The notes under the pieces: generated by a model | What the model was told of the DNA's origin: nothing | Seen by the model: only the letters and a program-made list of their open reading frames with translations | Database searches by the model: none | Assembly (NCBI GenBank): GCA_963628195.1 | Contig: CAVGEC010000004.1 | Location: 20,517-52,516, forward strand | Source: Bacteroidaceae bacterium | Lineage (GTDB): Bacteria > Bacillota > Clostridia > Oscillospirales > Oscillospiraceae | Direction: 5' to 3' | DNA: 32,000 nt | Position numbers and translations under genes: made by a program | Shown here: piece after piece, positions 6,384 to 32,000 of the stretch | Layout: each line of letters opens with the position of its first letter | How positions within the stretch are numbered: position 1 is the first letter of the stretch

Positions 6384-7382
6384 ATGGCTCTGTTTGAAAG
6401 TTACGAAAGACGTATCGACAAGATCAACGGCGTCCTCGCGCAGTACGGCATCGGCTCCGTGGAAGAGTGCCGCGATCTCTGCAAGGCGAAGGGGTTTGAT
6501 CCCTATGAGATCGTGAAGGGCATTCAGCCCATCTGCTTTGAAAACGCCTGCTGGGCGTACACCGTGGGTGCGGCCATCGCGCTGAAGTCCGGCGTCAAGA
6601 CTGCTGCTGACGCTGCCCGGAAGATCGGCGAAGGCCTGCAGTCCTTCTGCATTGACGGCTCTGTGGCCGAGGACCGCAAGGTAGGCTTGGGCCACGGCAA
6701 TCTGGGCGCCATGCTGCTGAGCGACGAGAGCAAGTGCTTCGCATTCCTGGCCGGCCACGAGTCCTTTGCTGCCGCCGAAGGAGCTATCGGCATTGTGCGC
6801 AACGCCAATAAGGCCCGCAAGGAGCCTCTGCGCGTGATTCTGAACGGTCTGGGCAAGGATGCGGCGCAGATCATCAGCCGCATTAACGGCTTCACCTATG
6901 TGCAGACTCAGTTTGACTATTTTACCGGTAAGCTGAACATTGTGCGTGAGATCCGCTATTCCGAGACCGAGCGCGCCGATGTGCGCTGCTACGGTGCGGA
7001 CGACGTCCGCGAAGGCGTGGCCATCATGCACCACGAGGGTGTGGACGTGTCCATCACCGGCAACTCCACCAACCCCACCCGCTTCCAGCACCCTGTGGCG
7101 GGCACCTATAAGAAGGAGTGCATCGAGCAGGGTAAGAAGTATTTCTCCGTGGCTTCCGGCGGCGGTACCGGCCGTACGCTGCACCCGGACAACATGGCTG
7201 CCGGTCCCGCTTCCTACGGCATGACCGACACTATGGGACGTATGCACAGCGACGCGCAGTTCGCAGGTTCCAGTTCCGTCCCCGCACATGTGGAGATGAT
7301 GGGCTTCCTGGGCATGGGCAACAATCCCATGGTGGGCGCTACCGTGGCTGTGGCTGTGGCTGTGGCAGAGGCTGTGAAGTAA
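6384..7382 (+). CDS. GGGtGRT family protein (uncharacterised)
   Basis: 332 aa containing the eponymous SGGGTGRT motif. RBS GAAGGAGG upstream. Confidence 0.85.
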   Translation: MALFESYERRIDKINGVLAQYGIGSVEECRDLCKAKGFDPYEIVKGIQPICFENACWAYTVGAAIALKSGVKTAADAARKIGEGLQSFCIDGSVAEDRKVGLGHGNLGAMLLSDESKCFAFLAGHESFAAAEGAIGIVRNANKARKEPLRVILNGLGKDAAQIISRINGFTYVQTQFDYFTGKLNIVREIRYSETERADVRCYGADDVREGVAIMHHEGVDVSITGNSTNPTRFQHPVAGTYKKECIEQGKKYFSVASGGGTGRTLHPDNMAAGPASYGMTDTMGRMHSDAQFAGSSSVPAHVEMMGFLGMGNNPMVGATVAVAVAVAEAVK

Positions 7383-11732: not shown

Positions 11733-12544
11733 GCAAAAAGACGCGGCTGGATGTGCTGCTGACAGAGCGCGGACTGTGCGAGAGCCGCCAGAAGGCGCAG
11801 GGCGCCATCATGGCCGGATTGGTATTCGTAAACGGGCAGCGTTCGGACAAACCGGGGACACCGGTGGCCGATGACGCCGATGTGGAAGTACGCGGGCATG
11901 CCCTGCGGTATGTGAGCCGGGGAGGTCTGAAGCTGGAGAAGGCTATGCAGACGTTCCCCATCACACTGGTGGGAAAGGTGTGCGCGGACATCGGTGCATC
12001 CACCGGAGGATTTACGGACTGCATGCTGCAAAACGGCGCGGCGAAGGTTTACGCCGTGGACGTGGGCTACGGACAGCTGGACTGGAAGCTGCGCAGCGAT
12101 GCACGGGTGGTGTGCCTGGAACGCACCAATGCACGGTATCTCTCCGCGGAGCAAATACCGGAGGCGCTGGACTTTGCGTCTATCGATGTGAGCTTTATCT
12201 CGTTGAAGCTGATATTTCCGGCGCTGTACCAGCTGCTGCGCGATGGCGGTGAGGTAGCCTGCCTTATCAAGCCGCAGTTTGAAGCGGGACGTGAAAAGGT
12301 GGGCAAAAAAGGTGTCGTGCGGGATCCTAAAGTACATCTGGAGGTACTGGAGGACTTTTTGGAGCACGCAAAAGAAAATCACTTTACGGTGCTTGGTATT
12401 ACATTTTCTCCCATCCGCGGGCCGGAGGGAAATATTGAATATCTGGGCTACCTTAAAAAATGCGGGGAAGCGGACTGCATCCCTGATCTGCAGGCGTTGG
12501 TGGACGCCTCACACTCTGTGTTGAAGGAAGGTCACGGGGAATAA
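11729..12544 (+). CDS. tlyA: TlyA-family rRNA 2'-O-methyltransferase (S4 domain plus FtsJ-like)
   Basis: Start ATG 11729 overlaps the dxs stop (ATGA). Sequence MSKKTRLDVLLTERGL..., then SAM motif DIGASTGGFTD. Confidence 0.9.
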   Translation: MSKKTRLDVLLTERGLCESRQKAQGAIMAGLVFVNGQRSDKPGTPVADDADVEVRGHALRYVSRGGLKLEKAMQTFPITLVGKVCADIGASTGGFTDCMLQNGAAKVYAVDVGYGQLDWKLRSDARVVCLERTNARYLSAEQIPEALDFASIDVSFISLKLIFPALYQLLRDGGEVACLIKPQFEAGREKVGKKGVVRDPKVHLEVLEDFLEHAKENHFTVLGITFSPIRGPEGNIEYLGYLKKCGEADCIPDLQALVDASHSVLKEGHGE

Positions 12545-15614: not shown

Positions 15615-15897
15615 CAACTTGATACCGCAACAGCGATGAAGGGAATAAGTAGCGCATTTCAGACCTGCCAAGAGAGCCCCCGGTTGGTGGAAGGGGGAGA
15701 GGAAGAAATGGGTGAATACATCCCGGAGCAGCCTCCCGAACGTTTGCATGAGCCAGTAGGGATGTGTCGGGTTCGCCCGTTACAGCGATAGGGTGTGTCT
15801 GCACCCGATGAGGTCGTGTCTGCGAGGGCATGGCGAATATGAGGTGGTACCGCGAGCGTTTGCATCGCCCTCTGTCGAGATGACAGGGGGCGTTTTT
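15615..15897 (+). promoter_or_regulatory. T-box riboswitch leader, tyrosine-specific
   Basis: AGAGA box (~15671). Specifier-loop GAAUACAU with the UAC Tyr codon at 15717-15719. Canonical T-box GGTGGTACCGCG (15843-15854). Terminator CGCCCTCTGTC..GACAGGGGGCG plus T5 (15866-15897). Confidence 0.9.
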
Positions 15898-19374: not shown

Positions 19375-20526
<1,152 letters not shown>

Positions 20527-22505: not shown

Positions 22506-23390
22506 ATGACAGACTTTATCGCGGCTTACCGCGACTATCTTATCGAGGAGAAACATTCGTCTGCCAATACCCTCAGCTCTTACATACGAGACTTGACGCA
22601 GTTCCAGAGTTGGCTGCTTTCCGGCGGTGTAACAGATATGCGTAAGGTCAAAAAAGAGACGATTAACGAATATCTGCTGCACATGACACACAGTGGAAAG
22701 AGTCCGGCCACGGTCACCCGGTCTACGGCGTCGATCAAGTCCTTTTACGCCTACATGGTACAGTGCGGCGCGATAAAAACCAACCCGGCCAAAAACGTGG
22801 TGGCCATGAAAGTGGAACGGAAGTACCCGGAAATCCTTACCAACCGCGAGGTGGAACTGTTTCTGGATCAGCCCAAATGCGTGGATGAAAAGGGATTCCG
22901 CGACCATGCCATGCTGGAACTGCTGTACGCCACAGGTATCCGTGTCAGCGAGCTGATCGGACTTGACGTGAGCGACGTTAATCTGTCCGCCGGCTTCGTC
23001 CGCTGCCGCAGCAAGGGTAAAGAGCGAATCGTACCGCTGTATCCTGCCGCGGTAAAGGCACTGGAGGACTATGTGCGTGATATCCGGCCCCGGCTGATCG
23101 CCGACGAAGATGAACAGGCACTGTTTGTCAATATGAGCGGTGAGCGCATGAGCCGGCAAGGTTTTTGGAAGATCATCAAGCATTATCAAGAAAAAGCCGG
23201 CATAGAGAAGGACATTACTCCGCACACTCTGCGGCACTCCTTTGCGGTGCATCTGCTGGAGAATGGCGCGGATCTGCGCTCTATTCAAGAGATGCTTGGC
23301 CATGCGGATATCAGTTCTACGCAGATTTATACACATGTGATCAAAAAGCAGCTGAAGGATGTGTACAACAAGGCCCATCCCAGGGCATAG
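22506..23390 (+). CDS. xerD: Site-specific tyrosine recombinase XerD
   Basis: 294 aa with an N-terminal SAM-like domain. Catalytic R..HxxR..Y residues in HTLRHSFAVHLLENGADLRSIQEMLGHADISSTQIYTH. Ends in TAG. Confidence 0.9.
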   Translation: MTDFIAAYRDYLIEEKHSSANTLSSYIRDLTQFQSWLLSGGVTDMRKVKKETINEYLLHMTHSGKSPATVTRSTASIKSFYAYMVQCGAIKTNPAKNVVAMKVERKYPEILTNREVELFLDQPKCVDEKGFRDHAMLELLYATGIRVSELIGLDVSDVNLSAGFVRCRSKGKERIVPLYPAAVKALEDYVRDIRPRLIADEDEQALFVNMSGERMSRQGFWKIIKHYQEKAGIEKDITPHTLRHSFAVHLLENGADLRSIQEMLGHADISSTQIYTHVIKKQLKDVYNKAHPRA

Positions 23391-24674: not shown

Positions 24675-25715
24675 ATGAGTATTGATTTCGGGGCGGATCT
24701 GTACGAGGATCCTATCGTAGCTAAGACCTTCCTCAGCGAGGATGTCAACGAGGGATCCCTGCGTCCCCGCACGCTGGCGGAGTATATCGGCCAGGAAAAA
24801 GCCAAGCAAAATCTCTCCATCTTTATCGAGGCGGCGCGTCGGCGGACGGAGTCACTGGATCATGTGCTGCTGCATGGCCCTCCGGGACTGGGCAAGACCA
24901 CGCTGGCAGGGATCATTGCGCAGGAGATGGGCGTAAACATCCGCATCACCTCCGGGCCGGCCATTGAGAAGCCGGGCGATCTGGCGGCGCTGCTGACCAA
25001 CTTGAGTGAAAACGACATTCTGTTTGTGGATGAGATACACCGGCTGAACCGGGCCGTGGAGGAAATACTGTATCCGGCCATGGAGGACTACGCCATTGAT
25101 ATCATCATCGGCAAAGGTCCCTCGGCCAATTCCATCCGGCTGGATCTTCCGAAATTCACACTGATCGGCGCCACCACACGGGCTGGTTCGCTATCCGCGC
25201 CGCTGCGGGATCGTTTTGGTGTGACGCTGCGGCTGGAACTGTACACACCGGAGGAATTGGCAAAGATCGTCACCCGCAGCGCAGGTATACTCGATGTGCC
25301 CATTGAGGCGGAGGGGGCCATGGAGATCGCACGGCGTTCCCGCGGCACGCCCCGCATTGCCAACCGTATGCTGCGGCGGGTGCGGGACTTTGCACAGGTG
25401 ATGGCGGACGGAGTTATCACCAAAACGGTGGCCGATAAGGCGCTGCTGGCGCTTGAGGTCGACTACCTGGGCCTGGACAATGTAGACCGCCGTATGCTGC
25501 GGGCCATTATTGAGAACTACGGCGGCGGGCCGGTAGGCCTTGACACCTTGGCAGCGACTATCGGCGAGGAATCGGTAACGCTGGAGGATGTATATGAGCC
25601 GTATCTGATGCAGATAGGCTTTTTGACGCGCACACCCAGAGGCCGCTGCGTTACACAGAGGGCTTATGAGCATCTGCACATCGCTTTTTTGGGACAGCAG
25701 CAGCTGGAACTGTAG
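24675..25715 (+). CDS. ruvB: Holliday junction DNA helicase RuvB
   Basis: 346 aa with Walker [10 protein letters not shown] and Walker [11 protein letters not shown]. Ends in TAG. Confidence 0.95.
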
Positions 25716-28677: not shown

Positions 28678-29412
28678 ATGTCAGGACATTCCAAGTGGCA
28701 CAATATTCAAAAGACCAAGGGTGCGGCCGATGCCAAGCGCAGCGCCGCGTTCACCAAGATCGCCAAGGAGATCATTGTGGCCGTCAAGCAGGGCGGCAGC
28801 GGCGATCCCAACAATAACTCCCGTCTGGCTACCGTGATCGCCAAGGCCAAGGCTGCCAATATGCCTAACGACAATATCAAACGTACCATCGACAAGGCGC
28901 TGGGCTCCGGCAATACCGATAACTACGAGTCCGTCACCTACGAGGGCTATGGCCCCTGCGGTGTGGCCGTGATCGTGGAGGCGCTGACCGACAACCGCCA
29001 GCGCACCGCGCCGGAGATCCGCCATTACTTTGATAAGTTTGGCAAGGGCATGGGTGCACAGGGCTGCGTCAGCTGGTCCTTCGACCGCAAGGGCGTTGTT
29101 GTCATCGACAATGAGGAAGGCGAGCTGGACGAGGACACTGTGATGATGGACGCGCTGGATGCCGGTGCCGAGGATATGCAGGCCGATGGTCCCGTGTTCG
29201 AGATCACCACTGATCCCGACAGCTTCAACGATGTGGTCAAGGCGCTGGAGGAGAAGGGCTATTCCTTCGAGAGCGCCGAGATCGAGATGGTGCCCCAGAA
29301 CTACATCGTCATGACCAATGAGGACGACGTTCGCAGCATGACCAAGCTCCTGGATATGCTGGATGACAACGAGGACGTGCAGAACGTCTGGCATAACTGG
29401 CAGCAGGATTGA
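28678..29412 (+). CDS. yebC: YebC/PmpR family DNA-binding transcriptional regulator
   Basis: 244 aa beginning MSGHSKWHNIQKTKGAADAKRS. Confidence 0.93.
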   Translation: MSGHSKWHNIQKTKGAADAKRSAAFTKIAKEIIVAVKQGGSGDPNNNSRLATVIAKAKAANMPNDNIKRTIDKALGSGNTDNYESVTYEGYGPCGVAVIVEALTDNRQRTAPEIRHYFDKFGKGMGAQGCVSWSFDRKGVVVIDNEEGELDEDTVMMDALDAGAEDMQADGPVFEITTDPDSFNDVVKALEEKGYSFESAEIEMVPQNYIVMTNEDDVRSMTKLLDMLDDNEDVQNVWHNWQQD

Positions 29413-29555
29413 CGGAACTTTTCCTGCGGAAAAGAAGCTGACTTTCAGTAAAACAGCACATTTTCGGAACTAAAATTTTTGCGGTTGCGAAATACATTGA
29501 TTGCGCTGTGATATACATTCTCCTTTGATTGCGACATACCAAAGGAGGAAATGAC

Positions 29556-30449
29556 ATGAAAATCAGCGCCGCTATCAGAGAATACTTAATTGAGATTGAG
29601 GTTAGGAAATATACCCCAAAGACCATTCGCGGGTATCGGAATAGCCTCAATCTCTTTTTGCGTTTTTGTGAGCAGGAGGCGCACATCCAAGAGGTAGAAG
29701 AAATCAATTTGGCTGTGGTGCGGCAATTCAGCGCGTATATGAACCAAAAGGGGAGAAAAGGCAGCTACATCAACGGCCTCTTGAAAGTGTCGAAGTCGTT
29801 TATCCAGTATTGCTATGATGAGGGCTACGGCGGCTTTAATACCAAGAAGAATTTCAAGTGGTGCAAGCAGGATAAGGCGGTCATTATAGCGTTCAAGCCG
29901 TGTGATGTAAAACAGCTCTTGCAGGAGAGCAGGGGAACAGATTATATCCATGTGCGCGACACGGCCATCCTAACCGCACTGTTTGAAACGGGTATTCGCT
30001 GCTGGGAGCTGTGCTGCATCCAAAAGCAGGACATACACGATGATTATATCATCATCAAAGGAAAGAACCATAAACAGCGTGTCGTGCCTATCACGCCGGT
30101 CTTACAAAAGGCGTTGATAAAATACAATGCTTGCGCGGCGGACTATTTTACGCTGCGGGGGACGGACGATTTCTATTTTCTGTCAAATCACGGGCGGCAG
30201 CTCACAAATTCAGCGGTGGAGAACATCATCAAGCGATATGGACAGGGAATAGAGGGTGTCCGCGTATCGCCGCACACCTGCCGCCATTTCTACGCCCAAC
30301 AGCAGGTGAAAATGGGGACAGACCTCTATACCATCTCCCGCTTGCTGGGACATGAGAACATCCAAATCACGCAGACGTATTTGAACAGCCTGCGGGACGA
30401 GGATATTATCAACAACACGAAACAGCGGAGCGTCCTCATGAGTTTGTAG
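29556..30449 (+). CDS. int: Tyrosine-type site-specific integrase
   Basis: Start at ATG 29556 (AAAGGAGG RBS). N-terminal SAM-like domain and a catalytic region containing HTCRHFYAQQQVKMGTDLYTISRLLGHENIQITQTY. Stop codon is TAG (30447-30449). Confidence 0.9.
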   Translation: MKISAAIREYLIEIEVRKYTPKTIRGYRNSLNLFLRFCEQEAHIQEVEEINLAVVRQFSAYMNQKGRKGSYINGLLKVSKSFIQYCYDEGYGGFNTKKNFKWCKQDKAVIIAFKPCDVKQLLQESRGTDYIHVRDTAILTALFETGIRCWELCCIQKQDIHDDYIIIKGKNHKQRVVPITPVLQKALIKYNACAADYFTLRGTDDFYFLSNHGRQLTNSAVENIIKRYGQGIEGVRVSPHTCRHFYAQQQVKMGTDLYTISRLLGHENIQITQTYLNSLRDEDIINNTKQRSVLMSL

Positions 30450-30521: not shown

Positions 30522-30557
30522 AAAAAAAGAGGCAACAGCGCGATTGCTGTTGCCTCT
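30522..30557 (-). terminator. Terminator between the convergent int gene and the GIY-YIG gene
   Basis: Stem AGAGGCAACAGC / GCTGTTGCCTCT, followed by a T7 run on the minus strand. Confidence 0.8.
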
Positions 30558-30558
30558 G

Positions 30559-30990
30559 TCAGTTATCCAGTAGGTCATCTAATGTAATTGTCATGGCGCG
30601 GGGATTTGTATTGAACTCGCGCCAGTTTTCTTCTTTGGGAATTTGGTAATTCAATGGCGGCAGATACCGGCGGATGTATTCACCCTCCTTCTGCCCGATT
30701 TCCTCTGTGATTGCTTTTGGATTTCCGGCGGCTGCCGTATAAAGAATAAAAAAACGTATGCGGTGGCCGTATCGCCGCGCCTCGGACAGCACACGGTATT
30801 TGTGGTTGGATAATAGCTGCATTCCCGCGTAGTGCTGCGCCATGCGGTAAAGGATATTGTGGCTTTTGCCGATATACACGACTTTATCATCCAACAGGAT
30901 AGAATACACGCCAGCGCGTTCAAACTACGGGGATAGCCCCTTACGTTTCAAGGATTGATATATGCGCTGCTCAAAAGTCAAAGGGTTCAT
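30559..30990 (-). CDS. GIY-YIG nuclease-domain protein; frame from ATG 30990 is interrupted by one in-frame TAG (30925-30927); the standard-code ORF is 30559-30909
   Basis: Hand translation gives MNPLTFEQRIYQSLKRKGLSP-TAG-FERAGVYSILLDDKVVYIGKSHNILYRMAQH.... The Gly of the GVY (GIY) motif lies upstream of the track's GTG start, immediately after the TAG. Real stop is TGA. Confidence 0.6.
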
Positions 30991-31180
30991 CTGCCTTATC
31001 CGCTTTACACGGATAGTCATGGGTTGGAAATTCTACCCCGAAATCATAATACAGCAGTCCAAAGAGATTATATGCCGCCACCATCAGCTCCCCATAGCTT
31101 TGCCCCTCTCTGTATATCCAAGCCTAATCCATTATTTCATTTATACACCTTGTCATTTCTTCAGGGCTTAACTTTTTCAT
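30971..31180 (-). CDS. Hypothetical 69-codon gene with one in-frame TAG (31124-31126)
   Basis: AAGGAGA (31187-31193) is followed by ATG 31180 with GGAG 7 nt upstream. Translation is MKKLSPEEMTRCINEIMD-TAG-AWIYREGQSYGELMVAAYNLFGLLYYDFGVEFPTHDYPCKADKADEPFDF, ending at TGA 30971-30973. The 50 codons after the TAG are open and have no start signal of their own. Confidence 0.5.
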
Positions 31181-31191
31181 GTTCATTCTCC

Positions 31192-31662
31192 TTAAAAAAC
31201 AAAATCTTTTGATGCGGGGACAACTTGTTGTCCCTGCACAGTATTTATACTATTTTTATTATTTATAGTATTTATTTCTATATTATCCGCCGGATTTTTT
31301 GGTTTGTCTGTTGGATTATCCTGTCCGTCAGCCGTTTTTGTTTGCGTGTCGGACTGTGGGACTTCATAGAAATCATATTGATTGCCGCCGGTCTGAACGA
31401 GATACCCGCAATTTACTAATTTGCGGAATTGGTCATAGAACGTGGAACGTGGCATTCCCACGTCCCGTTCTAAGGCCAGCGGAGAAAGCGCCAGCAAATA
31501 GTTGTCAGCGTTTGATGCAAGATAGAGATACAGCCGCAGCGCGGTTGCGCCCAGTATGCGGGAGGCGGCCATCCATCTTTCATTCTTGATACCAAGAAAG
31601 TCAGACGAGGCGCGCTCACGATGGACGCGAATTACCCGCTGATTGGGGACTGTCTTAGGCAC
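31192..31662 (-). CDS. Winged-helix/HTH DNA-binding protein of an MGE (replication or regulatory type)
   Basis: 156 aa. GTG start with GGAGG 9 nt upstream. Contains ALRLYLYLASNADNYLLALSPLALERDVGMPRSTFYDQFRKLVNCGYLV. Stop is TAA and the frame has no in-frame TAG. Confidence 0.65.
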   Translation of the reverse strand: MPKTVPNQRVIRVHRERASSDFLGIKNERWMAASRILGATALRLYLYLASNADNYLLALSPLALERDVGMPRSTFYDQFRKLVNCGYLVQTGGNQYDFYEVPQSDTQTKTADGQDNPTDKPKNPADNIEINTINNKNSINTVQGQQVVPASKDFVF

Positions 31663-31668
31663 TTCTTT

Positions 31669-31926
31669 TCACCTCCCCAAGCTACCAATGGCGCGGCGCA
31701 GCTCCTCGATCTGACGCAGGACATCGGTAATATCAACCGTCAAGGATAGGTTGGCGAGAATGTCTGCCACGATTTCCTTTTTCATCTGCTCCATCTCGCG
31801 GCGGTGTTCTTCCTTTGCCCGCAGCTTATTATGAGCAAACTGATAGCTTAAATCAGCCTACATCTTACTATCCATTCCACTTATAAAATAGCGGAAGAAA
31901 TTATCATCATTGTATTTATTGGACAT
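31669..31926 (-). CDS. Hypothetical 85-codon coiled-coil gene with one in-frame TAG (31858-31860)
   Basis: AAGGAGG (31934-31940) lies 7 nt before ATG 31926. Translation is MSNKYNDDNFFRYFISGMDSKM-TAG-ADLSYQFAHNKLRAKEEHRREMEQMKKEIVADILANLSLTVDITDVLRQIEELRRAIGSLGR, ending at TGA 31669-31671, which sits in the RBS of the next gene. Confidence 0.5.
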
Positions 31927-32000
31927 CGTATGTCCTCCTTTATAATTTTTTGAAAAATGACAGTTCTTTGTCTTTTTCTATAAATATTATATAATAATTT

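Follow-up and report, generated by a model that had tools for sequence, protein, structure and literature searches.

We analysed a 32,000-nucleotide stretch of DNA, hereafter the window (positions 20,517 to 52,516 of contig CAVGEC010000004.1, assembly GCA_963628195.1), from a bacterium whose GTDB lineage is Oscillospiraceae. Near its right end there is a four-gene operon on the reverse strand, g1-g156-g2-g3, which forms part of a small integrative element and in which g1, g2 and g3 each carry a single in-frame TAG codon. Recoding of TAG to glutamine (Gln) is already known in gut phages and in prophages of Oscillospiraceae, whose integrases keep the standard code. What is new here is recoding of the code-15 type in an element of about 5 kb which has neither virion genes nor a decoder, and in which it is limited to an early operon driven by a phage promoter. 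The comparisons reported below indicate that TAG is read in this operon as Gln, in the manner of code-15 gut phages.

The operon and its in-frame TAG codons

The first gene, g1 (31926-31669), starts with ATG at 31926 after AAGGAGG and a 7-nt spacer, and continues with 22 sense codons, TAG (31858-31860, in the context ATG TAG GCT), 62 codons and a TGA stop which falls inside the Shine-Dalgarno (SD) sequence of g156. Its translation comprises 85 codons, with TAG at codon 23, and the product, of unassigned function, is probably a coiled-coil protein. The second gene, g156 (31662-31192), would encode a winged-helix protein of 156 aa, DnaD-like or replication-initiator-like; in this lineage it is free of TAG, and its stop is TAA. 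In g2 (31180-30971), GGAG and a 7-nt spacer precede ATG at 31180, with an alternative ATG two codons upstream, and are followed by 18 codons, TAG (31124-31126, context GAT TAG GCT), 50 codons and TGA; the function of its translation, of 69 codons with TAG at codon 19, is also unassigned. The first 20 nt of g3 (30990-30559) are shared with the end of g2. From ATG at 30990, 21 codons lead to TAG at codon 22 of 143 (30925-30927, context CCG TAG TTT), after which come the residues FERAG and then GTG at 30909, from which a 116-aa open reading frame (ORF) extends to a TGA. This GTG, six codons past the TAG, is the start used by standard-code gene callers. At the end of the operon, between g3 and the convergent integrase gene, a terminator scan revealed a strong intrinsic terminator with a 12-bp stem and a T run (30528..30557, reverse strand). 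The TAG codons had been noticed in an earlier sequence-only reading of the window, and all their coordinates were verified from the sequence, as was its statement that none of the four genes ends at TAG (the stops being TGA, TAA, TGA and TGA in g1, g156, g2 and g3). With TAG read as Gln, the peptides across these codons would be MQADLSYQFAHNK in g1, CINEIMDQAWIYR in g2 and KGLSPQFER in g3.

With respect to function, g156 matched PHROG 186 and 270 ('DnaD-like helicase loader' and 'replication initiation protein', E=1.1e-5) and gave only weak helix-turn-helix (HTH) matches in Pfam. An identical g156 protein was found on 20 metagenome contigs, and no homologue was found among isolated phages and plasmids. 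The g3 product is a putative GIY-YIG nuclease related to T4 endonuclease II, with both the GVY and the YIGKS motifs. It matched PHROG 1111 ('endonuclease', E=5e-8) from residue 13 onwards, that is, ahead of the TAG. The score for Pfam GIY-YIG (PF01541) was 18.3 bits, under the cutoff of 22.6; many of its homologues have precomputed PF01541 matches. As in T4 endonuclease II (DenA, PDB 2wsh), there is a GIY-YIG core, a length of about 143 aa and an N-terminal extension before the first beta-strand, and this extension is kept across the whole g3 family. However, the identity to the T4 enzyme is just about 28% over 89 residues, with weak E-values (E=0.07 for PDB 2wsh), and the g3 family is terminase-adjacent in small phages. 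Only distant matches to T4 denA were obtained for g3 among isolated phages and plasmids.

Homologues were sought in genome, metagenome and viral collections and were read at the DNA level with TAG marked separately; codon alignments of the four genes took in loci L001-L045. The same TAG codons recurred in every related copy examined, on dozens of independent metagenome contigs. The g1 copies of L001-L045 contained exactly one TAG, either at the window column or 15 codons downstream, with no TAG in g1 of L019 and of the sister elements L086-L090, which were recovered separately. In g2, all 9-10 unique homologues, some with an identity as low as 44%, had TAG at one identical site, and every element copy of g3 had one to three TAG codons. 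Taking the homologues of all four genes together (about 60 loci), there were about 25 distinct TAG columns versus one TGA interruption. This sole non-TAG in-frame stop is a change from CGA to TGA in g3 of L052, at the window CGA of SEARRYGH, and is present in a single 1.9-kb Logan contig; either a true nonsense mutation or an error may lie behind it. No frameshifts were found in the window genes or in any homologue copy read.

The segments before the TAG codons evolve as coding sequence. The 21 codons that precede the TAG of g3 showed 6 synonymous and 0 non-synonymous changes with respect to L002, and likewise with respect to L001, while the 22 codons that precede the TAG of g1 showed 5 and 0, respectively, in comparison with L034. 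After the TAG codons, dN/dS was about 0.1-0.25, with dS ranging from 0.15 to saturation. Since the TAG columns are kept, both halves of the genes have dN/dS well below 1 and TAG swaps with CAG or CAA, the alignments support the view that TAG is a sense codon in g1, g2 and g3, and that these genes are intact and selected and not nonsense pseudogenes. The proposal of the sequence-only reading that TAG is translated as sense is thus borne out by columns conserved in diverged copies, by frames that are kept and by alternation with CAG and CAA. The frameshift-free frames that it had described in the window extend to the homologues, and the signs of decay which it had associated with ordinary pseudogenisation were not seen in relatives, where a single TGA was the only one.

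Purifying selection on either side of each TAG, at dS from 0.2 to saturation, also makes it very unlikely that we are dealing with a fossil code, i.e., with an operon captured from a code-15 phage whose leftover TAG codons lie in genes now decaying in a standard-code host. Such a history would agree with the phage origin of the promoter and the nuclease family, with the TGA in g3 of one relative, if genuine, and with the rearranged or fused copies in L034 and L037. It does not agree with TAG positions that, throughout the element clade, stay in place or shift but never disappear, with the lack of frameshifts and the restriction of all interruptions but one to TAG in some 25 independent columns, or with the presence of an intact element at the same site in hosts that have diverged by about 12%.

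The equivalence of TAG and Gln rests on DNA-level alignments and on code-11 sources only. At column 25 of g1, where the window has TAG, TAG was found six times and CAG five times, and the copies with CAG have TAG 15 codons downstream, in a column otherwise occupied by AAG or GAA. In g3, the counts were 12 CAG and 3 TAG at the 'AQHY' motif (column 55), 13 CAA, 3 CAG and 6 TAG at the near-invariant Gln of 'LNxQIP' (column 126), and 13 CAA and 1 TAG at column 12. The TAG column of the window's own g3 has TAG in 11 unique sequences, CAA in L019 and AAA or AAG in distant homologues, and g156 of L052 has TAG at the position of a CAG in the window. In addition, Q23 of g1 is near-invariant in database homologues, including code-11 records of NCBI and JGI. 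Glutamine codons are therefore found at TAG positions of homologues, for which the sequence-only reading had suggested looking.

The Q present at such sites in database proteins (P0121, P0122, P0005 and others) was discarded as evidence for Gln, as the contig DNA (L052, L053) has TAG there; these entries are not independent because the pipelines translated TAG with code 15. It must be noted that public collections translate TAG as Q in this way (L052, L053, L054; P0121, P0122, P0007, P0005), code 15 being assigned automatically to short contigs.

Two other ways of explaining the TAG codons seem to us extremely improbable. The first is that TAG stands for pyrrolysine, given that UAG is decoded as this amino acid in some Clostridia and that Lys occupies the TAG site of g3 in distant homologues; but TAG replaces a near-invariant Gln and alternates with CAG or CAA by single transitions, and neither pyl genes nor a tRNA were found within the 32-kb window. 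The second is that the genes are naturally split and translation re-initiates, as the GTG six codons past the TAG of g3 might suggest. The post-TAG segments have no conserved start codons or SD sequences, in agreement with what had been stated for the window, and in relatives the nuclease domain has its TAG codons midway or in its C-terminal portion, from where re-initiation could not yield a functional protein.

A small integrative element at the 3' end of yebC

The window is a 32-kb host stretch which, judging from its relatives, holds the right half of a site-specific integrative element of about 5 kb located at the 3' end of yebC. Only this right half is included; the left boundary lies past position 32000, and the missing half of the element was deduced from relatives 88-94% identical. 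The right boundary is given by an attR-side direct repeat (29371..29500), which consists of the last 42 nt of yebC and the sequence downstream. Next to it, on the forward strand, there is a gene for a tyrosine integrase of 297 aa (29556..30449; Pfam Phage_integrase, E=1.4e-26, plus a SAM-like N-terminal domain). The integrase gene has no in-frame TAG and its own stop is TAG (30447-30449), with an in-frame TAA six codons on; the TAG stop is also present in the L042 copy. Therefore, TAG is used both ways within the element.

The complete element was found in L042, a 263-kb human-gut contig which is 88% identical to the window across the element and the yebC-side host flank. There, it has a length of 5.2 kb and lies between 130-bp repeats (6977-7106 and 12167-12296, 90% identical) equivalent to window positions 29371-29500. 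In L035, L036 and L037, 65-bp repeats bracket copies of 4.85 kb. The leftward genes encode a serine resolvase, a variable cargo (a SHOCT-domain or a zinc-ribbon membrane protein, the former in the complete 5.2-kb element) and two small regulators, one of them an HTH_38 protein and the other of 70 aa, and are followed by the divergent promoter, g1, g156, g2, g3 and, finally, the convergent integrase. No virion, lysis, packaging or structural genes were detected in the complete L042 element, and no primase or helicase. The PADLOC scan gave no meaningful match to a defence system.

The sequence-only reading had implied a prophage with more recoded genes beyond position 32000. What the relatives show is an integrative element of about 5 kb without structural genes, and the excess of in-frame TAG that should then have extended to the other genes of the element was absent outside the operon, the integrase even stopping at TAG. 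The operon has 3 in-frame TAG codons versus 20 CAA or CAG, and the other element genes 0 versus 42 (Fisher p=0.04). The operon is written in a TAG-as-Gln dialect; the integrase and the leftward genes follow the standard code. The standard code is also that of the host, as had been concluded before: among the 22 host ORFs that precede the element and reach 150 aa or more, 6 terminate at TAG, including 24675-25715. The stop at 23388-23390, which had been attributed to xerD and brought forward in favour of the same conclusion, matches the stop of none of the large ORFs listed, but this does not alter the conclusion.

No suppressor tRNA was found by ARAGORN in any element (the window, the complete L042 and more than 40 related loci), and the Rfam scan of the complete L042 element found no family; the suppressor tRNA for which the sequence-only reading had proposed to look was found by neither program. 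By itself, the element is unable to decode TAG. The lack of an element tRNA, together with the lack of a TAG excess in the other genes, points to suppression in trans and does not refute recoding.

Relatives with the same core were recovered from metagenome-assembled genomes labelled Oscillospiraceae, Ruminococcaceae and Faecousia (L011-L013) and as L015, L043 and L054. Their TAG codons are located elsewhere, including in g156 (one TAG each in the homologues of L012/L043, L015 and L052) and in an HNH nuclease gene, and next to them lie genes for integrases, resolvase, TnpV, SprT-like and WYL proteins and cargo. Two further groups of sister elements have no in-frame TAG and read in code 11, namely L086-L088 (48-bp repeats, 5.4 kb) and L089-L090 (60-bp repeats, 5.9 kb), the integrase of L089 stopping at TAG. 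The architecture of these sisters is resolvase, cargo, small regulators, g1, a g156-like gene, with or without a GIY-YIG gene, and integrase. This architecture thus defines a family of 5-6-kb integrative elements; since the sister lineages are TAG-free, recoding is lineage-specific and TAG not obligatory. Less can also be said for the notion that each gene must have a single TAG, with other counts in L011-L015, two per gene in L054 and none in L086-L090.

Some variation among the elements was also observed. The slot beside the resolvase varies (L002, L004, L037, L042, L086, L089, L013, L012) and looks like a cargo or hot-spot position, occupied by SHOCT/DUF4234 membrane proteins, a zinc-ribbon membrane protein, TraX or DUF4352, and in distant relatives by an Ltp lipoprotein or by AAA plus WYL. 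Two elements are inserted in tandem at the same att site in L034 (1-6975), the first of them with a 561-aa large serine recombinase in place of g1 and g156. In L037 (3058-3738), a deletion near the end of g156 has fused g156 and g2 into one frame of 226 codons in which the TAG of g2 is kept.

The phage promoter and the probable source of the suppressor

The core of the operon promoter, AATTATTATATAATATTTATAGAAA, is located at 31975..31999 on the reverse strand, with the -10 box TATAAT at 31991-31986 and the -35 box TTGATT just past the window end. The promoter 25-mer AATTATTATATAATATWTATAGAAA is present as a single copy in the window, where the chance expectation is 0 even at 3 mismatches, and every close element has an exact copy, which lies some 75 nt ahead of g1. 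With one G added at the 3' end, where the window has A, the resulting 26-mer was found in 31 viral-contig stretches in IMG/VR. The phages with this 26-mer are mostly of 78-198 kb, with a low GC content (28-42%), several copies per genome and tRNA arrays. Their cassette always consists of the -35 box TTGAtt, 17 nt, TATAAT, ATATATAGAAAGTTAAGGAAAGG and ATG (cassette sequence AATTATTATATAATATWTATAGAAAG), and about 49 of 50 nt, from the -35 box through the leader, agree between the element of L042 and phages L064 and L082. The promoter of the operon is a copy of this phage cassette.

Arrays of more than 20 tRNAs are present in cassette phages, and in L064, L080 and L082 a cassette copy is followed downstream on its own strand, after 2-2.8 kb, by a tRNA(CUA). 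These three tRNA(CUA)s have a U1-U72 mismatch and G73, which are GlnRS identity features in E. coli. In addition, the cassette phages have an in-frame TAG in the uracil-DNA glycosylase (UDG) gene, at the Gln position of 'PPQKDVF' in E. coli Ung, as well as in a methyltransferase-like gene and others. The cassette is repeated in L058, L060, L064, L066, L067, L072, L073, L075, L080 and L082-L084, with arrays of 10-25 tRNAs, three of which include tRNA(CUA); L084 has a tRNA with the anticodon UCA.

An imperfect inverted repeat was observed right after the -10 box (window 31940-31975, reverse strand), made up of AAAAAGACA, 6 nt and TGTCATTTTT; in L002 and L042 it takes the form AGAAAGTT, 11 nt, AACTTTCT. 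It is missing from the phage cassettes and is a candidate operator for the HTH proteins of the element itself.

The g3 family provides a second connection with phages, as it adjoins the small and large terminase genes in phages of 11-27 kb. Among these, L022, L024, L026 and L027 are heavily TAG-recoded and L021, L023 and L025 are not; L026 adjoins a tRNA-Thr and an integrase, which fits the published Topaz prophages of Oscillospiraceae.

On this basis, we consider it somewhat more probable than not that the window holds a satellite-like element whose operon is fully translated only when an infecting or induced TAG-recoding phage supplies the suppressor. In an ordinary host cell, ribosomes would halt after 18-22 codons in g1, g2 and g3, and g3 would additionally be coupled to g2 through their overlap, so that full-length products of the three genes would require an amber suppressor tRNA (CUA, Gln-type). 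The likeliest source of this tRNA(CUA) would be an infecting or induced TAG-recoding phage, because the promoter is a near-perfect phage cassette and some of the phages with it carry tRNA(CUA) downstream. We infer that the suppressor comes from a phage rather than from the host and that the promoter is under phage control. The phage might also activate the promoter cassette, after which the element would replicate or deploy its nuclease, acting as a minimal satellite or hitchhiker or, possibly, as an anti-phage island. The TAG codons would then be a gate and not the neutral footprint of expression that always takes place in suppressing cells, and it is plausible that they serve as a regulatory switch. 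More tentatively, and with clearly less assurance than for phage-supplied suppression as such, the element may be a satellite or defence island with a two-key lock, in which a copied phage promoter and the amber codons let the operon fire only in recoded cells. If true, this would be the first natural mobile element with the genetic code of another element as its induction signal.

Several observations weigh against dependence on a recoding phage. The GC content of the host is about 58% versus 28-42% in the cassette phages. No capsid-redirecting or packaging gene was found in the element, and a putative helper dependence is suggested indirectly, by the identity of its promoter with phage promoters and by its need for an amber suppressor. 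In the small, Topaz-like recoded phages that share the nuclease family, no tRNA(CUA) was found in the stretches searched. The TAG-free sisters L086-L090 indicate that the architecture works without TAG, and the promoter of one of them, L089, is just 2 mismatches from the phage motif. No host-linked suppressor tRNA was found within 32 kb of host DNA, and the chromosome may encode a tRNA(CUA) elsewhere. Finally, L019, a 96-kb recoded phage contig that is joined to the g1-g156-g2-g3 operon exactly at the cassette, could not be retained as proof that phage and operon are linked. A sister contig from the same metagenome (UViG_3300045988_073130 vs _081499) is 100% identical up to the cassette and then diverges (L019/L047 at about 8985 vs L058 at 1126): past the cassette, L058 continues into a tRNA array and L019 into the operon, with a jump in GC from 33% to 48%. 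As the divergence falls at the promoter, L019 may be a recombinant or an assembly chimera.

A large phage (L047 1346-1651, L046, L048) was found to encode a distant homologue of g156, with 30% identity over about 100 residues.

The suppressor could also be provided by the host, either as a chromosomal amber suppressor, perhaps conditional, or by a near-cognate tRNA-Gln(CUG), in which case the TAG codons would be attenuators that allow about 1% expression and no phage would be involved. A single TAG per gene suits readthrough of low efficiency. Natural misreading of UAG inserts Gln, with which the interchange of TAG and CAG is in keeping. Neither the element nor, in the stretches searched, the small TAG-recoded phages of the same ecosystem provide a tRNA(CUA), and of the TAG-recoded genomes studied by Borges et al. 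(bioRxiv 10.1101/2021.08.26.457843), just 40% had a detected suppressor tRNA. Decoding by the host nevertheless seems unlikely to us. About one quarter of the host genes stop at TAG, which would make a strong constitutive suppressor costly, and basal readthrough would be inadequate for the genes of relatives and phages because these have many TAG codons (2-5 per gene in relatives and up to 10 or 11 in the phage neighbours), some of them at shared sites (e.g., LNxQIP). The RNA structure after the TAG codons was no different from that of shuffled sequence (z = -1.8, +0.7, +0.4), so that no stimulatory structure is apparent, and the bases that follow them (G, G and T) do not correspond to known leaky contexts; the latter is neutral with respect to a phage suppressor.

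Comparison with known systems

Oscillospiraceae harbour TAG-recoded Topaz prophages, in whose integrase genes in-frame TAG is avoided and the stop may itself be TAG; it has been suggested that recoding could serve to sense co-infecting phages (Borges et al., bioRxiv 10.1101/2021.08.26.457843). The element of the window resembles these prophages and the code-15 phages in having in-frame TAG at Gln positions of conserved proteins in a standard-code host, an integrase that is TAG-free inside and ends at TAG, and recoded genes that end with TAA or TGA; the nuclease family of g3 is common to the element and the small recoded phages. Unlike the code-15 phages, it measures only about 5 kb and lacks a tRNA as well as any gene for virion structure, lysis or packaging. 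Moreover, its recoding is confined to one early-type operon (replication-initiator-like, nuclease) instead of late genes, with one and rarely two TAG codons per gene rather than many.

The element also has features of phage satellites (PICI, minimal PICMI-type, P4-like), such as its small size, integrase, att repeats and lack of virion genes, divergent small regulators, a replication-initiator-like gene and a variable cargo slot, tandem integration (L034), and sequence motifs in common with phages. It differs from them in having no identified helper, terS, capsid-remodelling gene or cos site, and in known satellites the helper is sensed by protein anti-repressors, the translation code playing no part. 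The logic is that of laboratory amber mutants (T4 am, lambda Sam7), which on suppressor hosts give the product only with tRNA(CUA); in contrast to them, the arrangement in the element occurs in nature, is conserved and involves three genes of a single operon. A full-text literature search turned up no account of recoding in either satellites or small integrative elements other than phages.

Recoding has so far been described for phages with means of their own, actual or presumed, to change the code, and this element has none. As its TAG-bearing genes are conserved, they would be routinely translated in cells whose code something else has changed. The element thus offers a concrete and testable system for the genetic code as a signal between mobile elements, and TAG codons of this kind could be used as a bioinformatic marker of elements that depend on recoding phages. 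From a practical point of view, it must be considered that standard-code gene calling fragments such genes and that some public pipelines silently apply code 15.

With respect to the rest of the window, exact look-up of its integrase found no record, and that of its yebC led to just one 3-kb contig. A T-box leader (Rfam RF00230, 106.7 bits) was identified at 15627-15875 on the forward strand, upstream of a host gene; it is an ordinary feature and unrelated to the recoded operon.

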